A DNA stretch of 64,000 nt from an uncultured Anaerolineales bacterium (GCA_964480865.1 CAYZRP010000008.1:9080-73079); one strand, 5' to 3'; counted from the first letter of the stretch, positions 50,516-56,995 are shown. Numbers and translations: made by a program. The notes: generated from the letters alone by a model not told the origin.

Positions 50516-53500
50516 ATGACCTCAAACACCCTATCACCCTCAACGGGCAGCACGCCTGAACCCATTGCCATCGTCGGCATGGGCTGTCGGTTCCCCGGTG
50601 GGGTGACGGATCCTGAATCGTTCTGGTCGTTGCTCAGTCGGGGTGACACAGCCATCGGCGAGATCCCACCCGATCGGTTCTCGGTTGAGACGTTGTTCGA
50701 TCCGCACCCGGCCACACCCGGCAAGATCATGTCACGCTGGGGGGGATTTCTCAGCGGCATCGATCAATTCGACGCCTTCTTCTTCGGCATCGCTCCGCGT
50801 GAAGCCGAGCGCCTTGACCCGCAGCAACGCCTCCTCCTCGAGACGACCTGGGAGGCTCTGGCGGATGCTGGCCAGAATCTGGCCGAGTTGTCGGGCAGCC
50901 GCAGCGGAGTGTTTGTCGGCCTATGGCTCAACGATTACGAAGGTCGACTGTTCGCCGACGCTGCGAAGACAGACTTCTATATGACGACCGGAAGCGGTCG
51001 CTATTCTGCGTCTGGACGCCTGTCATACCAGTTCGGCTGGCAAGGGCCGAGCCTGACCGTCGACACTGCCTGCTCGTCATCGCTTGTGGCCGTGCACCTG
51101 GCTGTGCAGAGTCTGCGCAGCGGCGAGTGCTCTCTCGCAATCGCGGCCGGAGCGAACGTCATCCTTCAACCCCACATCACCATCGCCTACTCGCAATCAC
51201 GCATGATGGCGCCCGACGGCCGATGCAAGTTCGGTGACGCGGCCGCAGACGGATATGTGCGCAGCGACGGCGCGGCGTCGATCGTGCTCAAGAGATTGTC
51301 CGATGCCGTGCGCGACGGCGACCCGGTCAGAGCCGTGATCCTGGGCAGCGCCGTCAACAATGATGGCCGCGGCACCACCCTGACCACACCCAGCCAGAGC
51401 GGGCAAGAGCAGATGCTGCGCCTGGCCTACATCGACGCCGGCGTGTCGCCGAGCGACGTGCAGTACGTCGAAGCGCATGGCACGGGCACACGCGCCGGTG
51501 ACCCGGTGGAGATCGGCGCGATCGGTGCCGTGGTGGGTGCGCAACGCGCCGGTGAACAGCTGTGCCGCATTGGATCCGTGAAGACGAATATCGGCCACAC
51601 CGAAGGCGCTGCCGGCCTCGCGGGGCTCATGAAGGTCGTGCTGTCGATGCAGCATGGGCAGTTGCCGCCGAGCCTGCATGTGCAGACACCCAACCCCGAT
51701 ATCCCCTGGTCTACGTTGGGCGTCCGTCTGCAGCGCGAACTCGAACCCTGGCCCGCGCGTGACGGCGCCGCACTGGCGGGCGTCAGCGCGTTTGGCATCG
51801 CCGGCACGAACGCACACATCGTCCTGGCTTCAGCGCCGTCCCTAAGGGCTGGCGTTTCCCACAGCGAACCGGCCCGTCCCCAGGTCCTGCCGCTGTCAGC
51901 TCAGTCGCCGGAAGCTTTGGTGGCCGTCGTCGAGTCGCTGGAGGCGTTCCTGGCGCAGGCTCCGCGAAACAAGGAGGCCACGTGGCTGGGCGACGTTGCC
52001 TACACCGCTTCAACGCGCCGCACCCATCTCGACTATCGCCAGGCATTCGTATCCGAGTCCATCGACGGGATGCGGGTCGCGCTCAGTGATTGGGCCGCAT
52101 CGGCTCGCGCCGGCGAGCTCCCTGGCTCGCTCGAGCAGCAGCGGCGCATCGCTTTCGTCTTCCCGGGCCAGGGCGGGCAGTGGCTGGGCATGGGCCGCGA
52201 ACTCTACGCGCAGGAGCCGCTCTTCCGTGATCACATTGATCGATGCGAGCGCGCATTCGGTCCCTTTGTGAAGTGGTCGCTCGTGGAGCAGTTGCAGGCC
52301 GGGCCCGACACGTCGCGGCTGGCCGAGATCGATGTCGTGCAGCCGGCTCTCTTCGCGATCCAGGTGTCGCTGGCCGCGCTCTGGTCGTCGTGGGGTGTGA
52401 CCCCGGCCGCCGTGGTCGGGCACAGCATGGGCGAAGTAGCGGCCGCTCACGTGGCCGGCGCCCTGACCCTCGACGACGCCGCCCGCATCATCTGCACTCG
52501 CAGCGCATTGATGAAGCAGGTCAGCGGGAAGGGCTCCATGGCGCTGGTCGGCCTCACGCGTCAGGAGGCGCAGGTTGCCCTTGTCGGGCGCGAAAGTCAG
52601 TTGTCGATCGCTGTCAGCAACGGCCCGCGCTCCACCGTGATCGCCGGCGATCCTCAGGCTCTTGGTGAAGTCATCGCCGATCTCCAGAGCCGCGACGTCT
52701 TCTGCCGGCCCGTCAATGTCGATGTAGCCGCGCACAGCCCGCATATGGATGCGCTGCAGCGCCCGCTCGTCGAGGCGCTCAACGGGCTGGTCGCAGACGA
52801 GTCGACCATCCCGTTCTTCTCCACCGTCACCGGCAAGGTCGAACCCGGCTCCGCGCTGGATGCGTCCTACTGGGGCCGCAATCTGCGGGAGCCTGTCCTC
52901 TTCGCCGACGCCATCGAGCAGATGCTGGATGCCGGCTTCGATACCGTCATCGAGATCAACCCGCATCCGATCCTGCTCCAGGCTGTCGCTCAAGCCGACC
53001 GGCATGATCGCGATCTACGCACCATCGCGTCTTTGCGCCGCGAGACGTCGGAGCGCGGCAGCCTGTTCGAAGGCCTGGCCGAACTGTACCGGCTCTCACA
53101 CCCCATCGACTGGAAGGCCGTCTACCCGGCCGGTCGCTGTGTATCTCTCCCGGCTTACCCCTGGCAACGGGAACGCTTCTGGTACGACGCCGCCCCGACG
53201 CCATCGGCCGGATCACCACGTACGGGCTTGCTGAGCGGGCCTCTACAGGCGGCGACGTCCCCAGACACGACGTACTGGGAAGCCACGCTGTCGGTCCAGG
53301 AACTCCCCTTCCTCGACGACCACCGGGTGCGCGGCGCCGTCGTCGTCCCGGCCGCGGGCTTCGTCGAAATGGCCCTCACCGCCGCGCGCCATGCACATGC
53401 CACAGACGTGTTGGCGTTGCGCAACATCACGATCGAGGAAGCCCTTCTGCTCAACAGCCCACGACGCGTGCAACTCGTGCTGCGTCCCGCACAGCCCGGG

Positions 53501-56500: not shown

Positions 56501-56995
56501 GGGCGGCTGGCCGAGGAGTTGATGGGCACGGGCACCCGCGAGGACGCGAGACCCGCGCCAGCCGGAACGAGTTCATTGCGCGACGCGTTGAAAACCCTGA
56601 CGACCGCCCGAGAGCGACGCGAACGGTTGGAGGCCTTCGTGCGCGAGCAAACCGCCCTCGTGTTGCGGCTGCCTGTCTCGCGTATCGACCCACGCAAGCC
56701 GCTACGCACTCTCGGCTTCGACTCGCTGATGACCCTTGAGCTCCGGAACCGTTTGGAGGCCGGGCTTGGCGTGAGCCTGTCGGCCACACTGGTTTGGAAT
56801 TACCCGACGATCGCCGACATCGTGCCGCATCTCGCCGAAAAGCTCGGCCTGTCGTTTGCCACGGCCGATCCGGTGCCCGAACCCGCCGGGCCCGAAGCGG
56901 CCGAGGCGGCGCCGCTGGACGATCTGTCCGCCGAGGACGTCAACGCGCTGCTGGCGGCCGAGCTCGATGAGATCGACGACCTGCTCCGCGGCTGA
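50516..56995 (+). CDS. Type I polyketide synthase, single fully reducing module KS-AT-DH-ER-KR-ACP
   Basis: KS: DTACSSS / EAHGTGT / NIGHTEG. AT: FPGQGGQW / GHSMGE / VAAHSPHM. DH: HRVRGAVVVPAAG. ER: LIHAATGGVGLAA. KR: ITGGPGALGL, an LDD motif and NYAAAN. ACP: LGFDSLM. There is no TE, R or C domain. An alternative TTG start exists at 50498. Confidence 0.92.
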   Translation: MTSNTLSPSTGSTPEPIAIVGMGCRFPGGVTDPESFWSLLSRGDTAIGEIPPDRFSVETLFDPHPATPGKIMSRWGGFLSGIDQFDAFFFGIAPREAERLDPQQRLLLETTWEALADAGQNLAELSGSRSGVFVGLWLNDYEGRLFADAAKTDFYMTTGSGRYSASGRLSYQFGWQGPSLTVDTACSSSLVAVHLAVQSLRSGECSLAIAAGANVILQPHITIAYSQSRMMAPDGRCKFGDAAADGYVRSDGAASIVLKRLSDAVRDGDPVRAVILGSAVNNDGRGTTLTTPSQSGQEQMLRLAYIDAGVSPSDVQYVEAHGTGTRAGDPVEIGAIGAVVGAQRAGEQLCRIGSVKTNIGHTEGAAGLAGLMKVVLSMQHGQLPPSLHVQTPNPDIPWSTLGVRLQRELEPWPARDGAALAGVSAFGIAGTNAHIVLASAPSLRAGVSHSEPARPQVLPLSAQSPEALVAVVESLEAFLAQAPRNKEATWLGDVAYTASTRRTHLDYRQAFVSESIDGMRVALSDWAASARAGELPGSLEQQRRIAFVFPGQGGQWLGMGRELYAQEPLFRDHIDRCERAFGPFVKWSLVEQLQAGPDTSRLAEIDVVQPALFAIQVSLAALWSSWGVTPAAVVGHSMGEVAAAHVAGALTLDDAARIICTRSALMKQVSGKGSMALVGLTRQEAQVALVGRESQLSIAVSNGPRSTVIAGDPQALGEVIADLQSRDVFCRPVNVDVAAHSPHMDALQRPLVEALNGLVADESTIPFFSTVTGKVEPGSALDASYWGRNLREPVLFADAIEQMLDAGFDTVIEINPHPILLQAVAQADRHDRDLRTIASLRRETSERGSLFEGLAELYRLSHPIDWKAVYPAGRCVSLPAYPWQRERFWYDAAPTPSAGSPRTGLLSGPLQAATSPDTTYWEATLSVQELPFLDDHRVRGAVVVPAAGFVEMALTAARHAHATDVLALRNITIEEALLLNSPRRVQLVLRPAQPGLDGPAGSLSFQIYSQALPDGDWTLHAHGHLATDVAAAQPAADLADLRSRLTELQDREAFVRAMAARGLDYGPAFQAIEAWASTEREALAEIRLPDPVLARGFTLAPTLLDACFQALIATERDHPAATYLPIAIESLHLLQQPTAGGWAYAVRTQDGHDLTGNVIFFADDGAPVLEVRGLRLVRAEAAAKTAVESLLFDRVWSDTALESGDPELAGRWLIFDAADGAGGSLSRALIEHGGVALLGRPAETFTIDDAFHATLDPMCRDDWQRWFAHTGPVRGVIGLWAESSDLADAARRKSVSLLGLVQALAAAAWEPQPRLWVVTRQAVAVDATDVLAPDLTALWGLGGVIAHEHPGLRCARVDVDTFEGAEWAAKLVKEFARSVDEPQVSWRGPRRFVGRLKQVDPNAQPRITETDPTKQTPFRVVIDKPGVLDHLNIVRAPRRGPGPGQVEIAVEASGLNFINVLSAMGLYPGMPNGVGPLGLECAGTVSAIGPDVSNVAPGDAVLAIAHESLASHVLADARLVVHKPEHLSFVDAATLPIVFVTAWYGLHHLAQLQSGERVLIHAATGGVGLAAIQLARRIGAEVFATAGSPEKRDYLRALGIQYVYDSRSVAFAEQILADTGGQGVDVVLNSLTGAAIPAGLSVLAPYGRFVEIGKRDVYDNTRLGLWPFQKSLSFFMVDLERMIRERPAQIGHMLNDVIDAFRSGELKPLPTQTFAMANVSEAFRLMAQARHIGKLALTPRDANHAWPVVTAADAFDSESTYLITGGPGALGLAIAQRMIERGARHLLLMSRRAPSPAVENRLDELRQTGATVAVVQGDVSRMDDVRAVLTRIARDLPPLRGVIHAAGVLDDGVLLQQTSERFGVVMDPKVTGAWNLHTLTEGLPLDFMLYFSSVASLLGTPGQGNYAAANAFLDGLAALRRRKGLPALSIQWGPWSTVGLAAQGDRVDRLNAQGVAPLEPGRGLAAFERVIGVDQAVVAVMAFDAAAWVSAHPADGRLAEELMGTGTREDARPAPAGTSSLRDALKTLTTARERRERLEAFVREQTALVLRLPVSRIDPRKPLRTLGFDSLMTLELRNRLEAGLGVSLSATLVWNYPTIADIVPHLAEKLGLSFATADPVPEPAGPEAAEAAPLDDLSAEDVNALLAAELDEIDDLLRG

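Follow-up and report, generated by a model that had tools for sequence, protein, structure and literature searches.

The sequence considered here, referred to as the window, is a stretch of 64,000 nucleotides (nt) from an uncultured Anaerolineales bacterium (GCA_964480865.1, CAYZRP010000008.1:9080-73079). It corresponds to positions 9080-73079 of contig C8 in G000, a metagenome-assembled genome (MAG) of 7.2 Mb in 289 contigs. Between aspA and the gene for tRNA-Pro(GGG), the window contains one gene for a type I polyketide synthase (PKS), designated PKS1, and this report concerns the pathway to which PKS1 may belong. The features of PKS1 and its promoter, in window coordinates, are the following:

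50339..50383, + strand: cluster-type promoter, TGGTAC-N6-GGTTATTGACC(-35)-N17-CATAAT(-10), facing PKS1
50498-56995, + strand: PKS1, a single open frame of 2165 aa; start TTG at 50498, alternative in-frame ATG at 50516
50558..51835, + strand: ketosynthase (KS), aa 21-446; Cys-His-His intact; starts ~20 residues from the N-terminus, without a docking head
52154..53056, + strand: acyltransferase (AT), aa 553-853; signature IDVVQP / GHSMGE / RS / VDVAAHS
53246..54070, + strand: dehydratase (DH), aa 917-1191; HRVRGAVVVP
54773..55729, + strand: enoylreductase (ER), aa ~1426-1744; HAATGGVG
55790..56323, + strand: ketoreductase (KR), aa 1765-1942; LDD (B-type) and YAAAN
56639..56830, + strand: acyl carrier protein (ACP), aa 2048-2111; GFDSL
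56870..56992, + strand: C-terminal docking tail, ~50 residues past the ACP, ending DDLSAEDVNALLAAELDEIDDLLRG

A preliminary description had reported a long frame at 50516-56995 with six apparently intact catalytic domains. This frame was found to be real and intact, and it extends upstream to the TTG at 50498. The domain order KS-AT-DH-ER-KR-ACP was established with Pfam, where all six domains scored far above the cut-offs (KS, aa 21-395; AT, 553-853; DH, 917-1191; ER, 1448-1743; KR, 1765-1942; ACP, 2048-2111), and every motif listed previously could be located. Those of the KS are DTACSSS at aa 189, EAHGTGT at 325, and KTNIGH at 362. In the AT, GHSMGE is found at 641, the conserved Arg within CTRSALM at 666, IDVVQP at 611, and VAAHS at 743, which confirms the odd signature that had been pointed out for this domain. 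The remaining motifs are HRVRGAVVVP (942), HAATGGVG (1567), LDD (1855), YAAAN (1912), and GFDSL (2073). With six domains in one polypeptide and the catalytic residues intact, PKS1 has the composition of a type I modular, cis-AT, fully reducing extension module.

A tblastn search of the whole G000 genome with a KS sequence identified exactly seven type I KSs: that of PKS1 and six that are consecutive on contig C4. The C4 block was annotated with Pfam and NCBIfam, and Pfam CurL-like KS-AT linker domains were found in its PKSs as well as in PKS1. The block encodes the following proteins:

C4:9366-11225 (L019:366-2225): AsnB-like protein, 619 aa, N-terminus MSGVFG, no catalytic Cys
C4 (L019:2239-3738): flippase of the Wzx/Polysacc_synt type, 499 aa
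C4: type II thioesterase (TEII), 272 aa
C4: Sfp/HetI-like phosphopantetheinyl transferase (PPTase), 256 aa; its stop overlaps the start of PKS_A
C4:14490: PKS_A, 1869 aa, KS-AT-DH-KR-ACP
C4: PKS_B, open reading frame (ORF) of 2274 aa with the KS from aa 113, KS-AT-DH-ER-KR-ACP
C4: PKS_C, 1476 aa, KS-AT-cMT-ACP, where cMT is a C-methyltransferase
C4: PKS_D, 2551 aa, KS-AT-DH-cMT-ER-KR-ACP
C4: PKS_E, 1945 aa, KS-AT-cMT-KR-ACP
C4: PKS_F, 2177 aa, KS-AT-DH-ER-KR-ACP
C4: nonribosomal peptide synthetase (NRPS), 1109 aa, C-A-T
C4: GDSL hydrolase (GDSL361), 361 aa, exported-looking
C4 (L021:11608-13382): two alpha/beta hydrolases, 284 and 307 aa

No loading module was found among the C4 proteins.

Thirty related genomes were searched for relatives of PKS1, and the best matches were obtained in G003 and G001, which belong to the same genus as G000. 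PKS1 is 61% identical (BLASTP; 62% in the search alignment) to the first PKS of G003 and 52-54% identical to that of G001. In both of these genomes more PKS genes start ~100 nt past the PKS1 orthologue. The flanks in G003 are syntenic with the window at 81-98% aa identity (94% for aspA and 92% for a solute-binding protein), and the order of genes in the G003 cluster is AsnB-like protein, TEII, PPTase, PKS1, six further PKSs, NRPS, and GDSL hydrolase. The G000 homologues of these genes are all located on C4, with the sole exception of PKS1. In G001 the cluster is found elsewhere than at the aspA site, on contig C83. The PKS1 orthologue directly follows TEII-PPTase or TEII in G003, G001, L061, L063, L049, L057, L080, and L072, and in these genomes it directly precedes the PKS_A orthologue wherever the contig continues. 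By position (contiguous in at least 8 genomes), and by the KS clade described below, PKS1 is the orthologue of a module in intact, colinear clusters.

The same family of clusters is present in G021 and in MAGs labeled Anaerolineae AMX57, Chloroflexota L.E.CH.71, Aggregatilineales, Ardenticatenaceae CFX1, and Acidimicrobiales. Among all of the clusters seen, PKS1 is separated from the rest only in G000. In the literature on Anaerolineae and Chloroflexota, no description of this cluster family or of its product was found. The preliminary description had considered PKS1 an orphan without an off-loading partner, and had allowed that it might belong to a well-characterized lipid pathway whose partner genes are simply located elsewhere. 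Other genes of the line, including a PPTase and a type II thioesterase, are indeed found elsewhere in the same genome, on C4, but the pathway is not a well-characterized one.

With the first-module KSs, the KS of PKS1 shares 80% (G003), 71% (G001), and 70% (G021) identity, compared with 49-57% for all of the remaining KSs. A maximum-likelihood tree built from 34 KSs joins it to these three first-module KSs in one clade (support 100/100), and each C4 KS pairs there with a counterpart from the intact clusters, mostly at the matching position. These pairings by position indicate that G000 holds one complete set of modules distributed over two loci. The placement of PKS1 in a first-module clade of modular lines runs counter to the MAS-like (mycocerosic acid synthase-like) assignment proposed previously. 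This clade joins, with moderate support (87/91), the first-module KSs of more distant clusters, in which the first KS is preceded by an adenylating enzyme with a carrier domain, a pair that was taken to be a FAAL-type loader. The tree thus gives a weak hint that the starter for PKS1 could be a fatty acyl group.

The AT domains of the first two modules in all four related clusters share the motifs VDV[VI]QP, GHSMGE, R(R)S, and VDVA[AS]HS, whereas most of the later ATs, including those of the cMT-containing modules D and E, have YTQP, GHSVGE, and HAFHS. Judged from this alignment, the conflict among the AT motifs is real and is not peculiar to PKS1.

For a comparison of the docking regions, 20 PKS tails and 20 heads were taken from three genus-level clusters. 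All six of the C4 PKSs possess a helical head of ~30 aa before the KS, and every tail on C4 has a downstream head. The only ends that are left unpaired in G000 are the tail of PKS1 and the head of PKS_A. Among the 20 tails, those nearest to the PKS1 tail are from the PKS1 orthologues of G003 and G001, and they are mutual best matches; the acidic C-terminal helix had correctly been called docking-domain-like, and the two first modules with these nearest tails are followed in cis by the PKS_A orthologue. The PKS_A head (SDDQTTQLKRALVALKDLRARLETVERARTEP), compared with the others in the set of 20, is closest to those on the second PKSs of G003 and G001, and the PKS_A heads are nearly identical across the clusters (TQLKRALVALKDLRARLETVERARTEP). 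Several other junctions also keep their own tail or head across clusters, and the PKS1 tail has the pattern LSxxEvxxLLxxEL that is common to other tails of the line.

The PKS_A head matched residues 13-52 of the N-terminal docking domain of CurL (PDB 4mz0) with an E-value of 2e-9, and a weak match was obtained with the CurK-CurL docking fusion (PDB 4myz). By the CurL match, this head has the character of a Class 2 N-terminal coiled-coil. Class 2 docking domains have been described for non-actinobacterial cis-AT lines (PMC9113145), and the match of the PKS_A head to CurL fits that description. The complementarity between a headless PKS1 with an unpaired tail and six headed C4 PKSs that lack a loader would be consistent with a single line.

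A promoter scan upstream of PKS1 returned TTGACC-17-CATAAT at 50355-50383. The -35 side of this promoter lies within a 22-nt element, TGGTAC-N4-7-G[AG]T[TC]ATTGACC, that has 2 copies in the 7.2-Mb genome, one before PKS1 and the other at C4:12751, within a 138-nt spacer ahead of TEII-PPTase-PKS_A. The longer pattern of TGGTAC-N6-GGTTATTGACC followed by CATAATG after 17-18 nt also occurs exactly twice in G000. From the base composition, we estimate that the 12-mer GGTTATTGACCC alone should occur ~0.5 times in the genome. The same element, CTGGTACTG(W)GCG(G/A)T(T/C)ATTGACC, precedes TEII in G003 (contig C27) and in G001 (C83). Since the element is shared with the cluster, PKS1 seems to be driven by the promoter type of the cluster family itself, which is an argument that PKS1 and the C4 operon (C4:12877-57382) are coregulated or, at the least, that the two promoters share a common origin. 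A 30-bp palindrome over the -10 box was considered as a shared operator and was rejected; it has no other copy in the genome, and the shared part of the promoter is on the -35 side.

Based on the synteny, the KS phylogeny, the conserved docking pairs, and the shared promoter element, PKS1 is probably the trans-encoded first module of a split, uncharacterized, eight-module PKS-NRPS line, the rest of which is encoded on C4. Membership in the Chloroflexota family (AsnB-like protein, Wzx-like flippase, TEII, HetI-like PPTase, PKS1, and PKS_A through the NRPS) is indicated by the KS, the AT signature, and the docking tail; the difference is that PKS1 is contiguous with the other genes in the other members and apart from them in G000.

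In the scheme that we infer for coexpression, starter, physical docking, number of rounds, and product, PKS1 would be transcribed from its own copy of the cluster promoter and phosphopantetheinylated by the Sfp/HetI-type PPTase from C4. Its KS would be primed directly by an acyl starter without a loading module, and a fatty acyl thioester is weakly suggested by the KS tree. The unusual AT of PKS1 would then select one extender unit, which PKS1 would add to the chain and fully reduce. The chain would be passed through the acidic tail of PKS1 to the CurL-type head of PKS_A (C4:14490), and the line would continue with PKS_A, B, C, D, E, and F and with the C-A-T module of the NRPS. The product predicted for this line is an acyl chain that is partly reduced, C-methylated three times, and capped with a single amino acid, and its release and export may be carried out by the neighboring hydrolases and the Wzx-like flippase.

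Of the systems described so far, those closest to this line are cis-AT PKS-NRPS lines whose proteins dock through Class 2 domains, the curacin line among them. In curacin CurG/H and CurK/L and in enacyloxin Bamb_5925/5924 there is also one module per protein, and an acidic helical tail on one protein is followed, on the next, by a coiled-coil head of ~30 aa that precedes the KS. A further resemblance is that the line in G000 is a hybrid, ending in an NRPS module. It differs from these lines in having no loading module, GNAT, or terminal thioesterase, in having its first subunit on another contig, and in being hosted by an uncultured Anaerolineales bacterium.

The boundaries of the site occupied by PKS1, and a further gene just beyond it, are as follows:

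48764..50182, - strand: aspA (aspartate ammonia-lyase/fumarase class II family; Pfam Lyase_1 and FumaraseC_C), conserved left boundary of the variable site
57070-57146 (57027..57146 with its promoter), + strand: tRNA-Pro(GGG), identified with ARAGORN; own TTGATA-17-TATAAT promoter; conserved right boundary
57603-58724, - strand: SGNH/GDSL hydrolase, 373 aa, Pfam Lipase_GDSL_2, ~600 nt downstream of PKS1

The flanking genes aspA and tRNA-Pro are thus as stated in the preliminary description. The aspA protein is 92-95% identical to its orthologues in G001-G004. The longest ORF for aspA (558 aa, extending to 50440) over-extends the gene, with Lyase_1 starting at residue 100 of this ORF, and the start is read as the ATG at 50182 (472 aa), which is backed by homology to the relatives. 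The spacer of ~315 nt between the start of aspA and PKS1 houses the PKS1 promoter. DNA homology to G003, G001, and G004 stops at ~50164-50170 on the left and restarts at 57027-57044 on the right, where the tRNA-Pro promoter begins 32 nt past the stop codon of PKS1.

The contents of the site differ among the relatives. In G004 it is empty (aspA, ~170 nt, and then the tRNA-Pro promoter), in G001 it carries an unrelated gene of ~1.2 kb that is deacetylase-like (with the look of a polysaccharide deacetylase, read without a domain search), in G003 a cluster of ~50 kb lies between aspA and tRNA-Pro, and in G000 there is one PKS gene. The aspA/tRNA-Pro spacer is, on this comparison, a variable hot spot within the genus at which cargo appears to be gained and lost. 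Among the 16 neighboring ORFs scanned in the window from 38.4 to 64 kb, no thioesterase, PPTase, FAAL, or acyltransferase was found, which bears out the local absence of partner genes reported earlier, and no integrase was found among these neighbors of PKS1. There is no second copy of the 3' end of tRNA-Pro and there are no meaningful direct repeats around PKS1 that would resemble att sites.

Beyond tRNA-Pro there is a second small insertion at 57147-58740, composed of 458 nt of noncoding DNA and the gene for the secreted-looking SGNH/GDSL hydrolase, which had been overlooked in the preliminary description. This hydrolase has an N-terminal signal or transmembrane segment followed by a Pro-rich linker. 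It is a paralogue of GDSL361, which ends the cluster on C4 (30% identity, E-value of 1e-35). Its gene occurs in both G000 and G003 (63% aa and 69% nt identity) and is missing from the site in G001 and G004. A link between this hydrolase and the PKS pathway is uncertain.

The history of the C4 locus can be followed in G003. The flanks of the C4 block map to contig C12 of G003, with 80% identity for a 1446-aa protein and 96% for PGM, and G003:C12 retains the orthologues of the AsnB-like protein, flippase, TEII, and PPTase (72-80% nt identity) and no PKS. Past the stop of the PPTase, ~55 nt can be aligned with the first codons of PKS_A, which encode its docking head, with a 1-nt deletion that leaves a frameshifted stub:

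G003:C12:186170-186330 (L040 ~14170-14330): deletion scar after an intact-looking PPTase; homology ends 177 nt before PGM

From this scar it follows that the junction of PPTase to PKS_A without PKS1 predates the split of G000 and G003. In a relative-rate test with G001 as the outgroup, there were 181 unique changes in PKS1 of G000 and 169 in the gene from within the G003 cluster (chi-square of 0.41). At 557 columns that are invariant in seven outgroups, 15 changes were counted in PKS1 of G000 and 19 in the G003 gene. By these measures, PKS1 shows no sign of decay or of relaxed constraint.

Several observations weigh against a split line that begins with PKS1. The 36-aa tail of PKS1 alone gave no significant match in the PDB, and the compatibility of tail and head is read from sequence conservation only. 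The PKS genes of G000 and G003 are 38-63% identical in aa and ~70% in nt, compared with ~84% nt identity for the flanks, and this greater divergence means that the cluster could have been replaced by transfer at a hot spot. Several rearrangements would be needed to go from a contiguous cluster such as that of G003 to the arrangement in G000, and no att repeats or integrase were found to explain them. No independent contig that encodes PKS1, in either start version, was found, and in a MAG of 289 contigs the junctions are supported by comparative arguments alone. In principle, the C4 line could start at PKS_A.

The preliminary description favored a MAS-like synthase that works iteratively and alone, with a long acyl chain, saturated or branched, as its product; on this reading, PKS1 would not depend on C4. 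The synteny, the KS tree, the docking pairs, and the promoter element speak against such a role, which we regard as unlikely. PKS1 has in common with MAS and with mycobacterial Pks2/Pks5 the domain order KS-AT-DH-ER-KR-ACP, a length of ~2100-2165 aa, and the lack of a loading domain, and it matches the MAS structures 9d2z and 9d2y over the full length with 1223 bits. This full-length match is a reflection of shared architecture. MAS is primed by acyl-CoA, and a gene with its own promoter, no PKS neighbors, and no loading module could be primed directly in the same manner; a lipid could be the substrate of the SGNH hydrolase nearby, although its signal or transmembrane segment probably makes it extracytoplasmic. 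However, PKS1 scored 1461.5 bits against the NCBIfam model for Pks2 (NF041183), for which the cut-off is 2400, and the KS-AT region scored higher with DEBS (717-723 bits) and CurL (709 bits) than with the KS-AT of MAS (5bp1, 644 bits). The resemblance to MAS noted earlier thus holds for the order of the domains and not for membership in the family. In contrast to MAS, Pks2, and Pks5, PKS1 carries a docking tail for which there is a partner in a downstream module, the conserved head of PKS_A; its promoter is that of the cluster, and the orthologues identified in the examined relatives are the first modules of colinear, multi-module lines. The scan of ORFs between 38.4 and 64 kb turned up no partners of the PapA, FadD, or MmpL type, and PapA-like genes were not searched genome-wide. 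With a single ACP and 378 bits against the polyunsaturated fatty acid (PUFA) synthase model PfaA (TIGR02813; cut-off of 1010), PKS1 also falls outside the PUFA/HglE type. A PKS-dependent sphingolipid route of the SgaA type was likewise considered and set aside, since the orthologues found here are all modules of assembly lines.

It is also improbable that PKS1 is an intact but idle relic of a G003-like cluster that was deleted from the aspA/tRNA-Pro site, with the C4 line either starting at PKS_A or being incomplete. The whole cluster of G003 is found at this very site, which is empty in G004 and filled by an unrelated gene in G001, and the scar on G003:C12 demonstrates that a remnant of a cluster deletion exists elsewhere. 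A relic of this kind is difficult to reconcile with a 6.5-kb frame that has no internal stop, retains all of the catalytic motifs and the cluster promoter, and has not accelerated relative to the G003 orthologue, particularly since the C4 junction without PKS1 is old and there would have been time for an unused gene to degenerate. Moreover, the head of PKS_A has no other partner, and there is no other first module in G000.

An artifact of assembly or binning, in which the true place of PKS1 is next to the genes on C4 or C4 derives from a different strain, might be suspected in a MAG of 289 contigs with 4.5% estimated contamination and PKS genes that are prone to misassembly, but it is highly improbable because both ends of PKS1 join unique sequence, syntenic with G003, G001, and G004, that has promoters on both sides, the overlap of the PPTase stop with the PKS_A start on C4 is independently confirmed by the stub on G003:C12, the KS domains (52-57% identical as protein) are too divergent to collapse in assembly, and the flanking housekeeping genes tested are single-copy in the bin with typical composition. 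The flanks of C4 and C8 are equally close to G003 (80-96% versus 82-97% aa identity), and this, together with the absence of a second copy of any tested C4 or C8 flanking housekeeping gene in the bin and the typical GC and tetranucleotide content, argues for an origin of both contigs from the same organism.

A number of additional observations were made on the proteins encoded on C4 and elsewhere in G000. The AsnB-like protein heads the cluster family and has MSGVFG in place of MCG, so that the glutaminase Cys is missing; it is more likely to be an ATP-dependent enzyme that forms an amide or lactam than a glutamine amidotransferase. Its best NCBIfam matches include the models for an XrtA/PEP-CTERM amidotransferase and a lasso-peptide cyclase, all below the cut-off. 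For the two alpha/beta hydrolases on C4 there is a weak resemblance, below the cut-offs, to the models TIGR03100 and TIGR03101 ("hydrolase 1" and "hydrolase 2, exosortase A system-associated"), and this resemblance together with a Wzx-like flippase in the cluster may hint at a lipid product that is bound to the surface or envelope. The ACP of PKS_A (G000:C4:19692-19910) and that of its G001 orthologue have GMESL, in a place where the other carriers examined, with one exception, have a DSL-type motif. With the Ser retained, the PKS_A carrier is probably functional.

Other carriers were considered as possible sources of a chain upstream of PKS_A and were rejected. One is an NRPS-like protein from contig C56 that has a putative thioesterase region and an adjacent PPTase and is no PKS loader, and the others are two small ORFs with PP-binding matches that are maybe free ACPs. 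The NRPS-like gene (G000:C56:3800-8380) encodes an adenylation region, a carrier (Pfam PP-binding), and a thioesterase-like GYCSGG motif, all of which except the carrier were identified by eye. It is adjoined by a second PPTase of the Sfp type and is probably part of an unrelated small cluster.

Split PKS clusters are known from other systems. The asm genes for ansamitocin are found in two regions, and the PKS genes for meilingmycin are at separate loci. As would be the case for PKS1 and the C4 proteins, the genes for the subunits of one line lie far apart, and docking domains and coregulation are presumed to bring the subunits together. The arrangement in G000 differs from these in that exactly one subunit, the initiating module, is displaced to a variable site adjacent to a tRNA gene, in that the displaced gene carries a copy of the promoter element of the cluster, and in that a contiguous cluster, an empty site, and a deletion scar can be seen in sister genomes. 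That the split is maintained and functional and not an accident, with PKS1 serving as an independently encoded and independently mobile "starter cartridge" at a tRNA hot spot that is wired to its line solely by the docking code and the TGGTAC-N6-GGTTATTGACC element, is a doubtful extension of the first-module assignment. On this view, a single module of this kind may have fed two lines in the ancestor shared by G000 and G003, one at the aspA locus and the other at the PGM locus. If true, the swapping of trans-encoded first modules would be a route to diversify the starters of polyketides.

No new kind of enzyme or mechanism is revealed by PKS1. Automated mining would probably misread PKS1 as an orphan iterative PKS and C4 as a line without a starter, and a product predicted from C4 alone would be one module off. 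The distant PKS1 would have to be part of any heterologous expression of the G000 pathway. Position-specific KS clades, junction-specific docking ends, and a cluster-specific promoter provide three cheap criteria with which clusters that are split in MAGs may be reunited, and the combined locus marks a conserved, uncharacterized PKS-NRPS family in the uncultured Chloroflexota.

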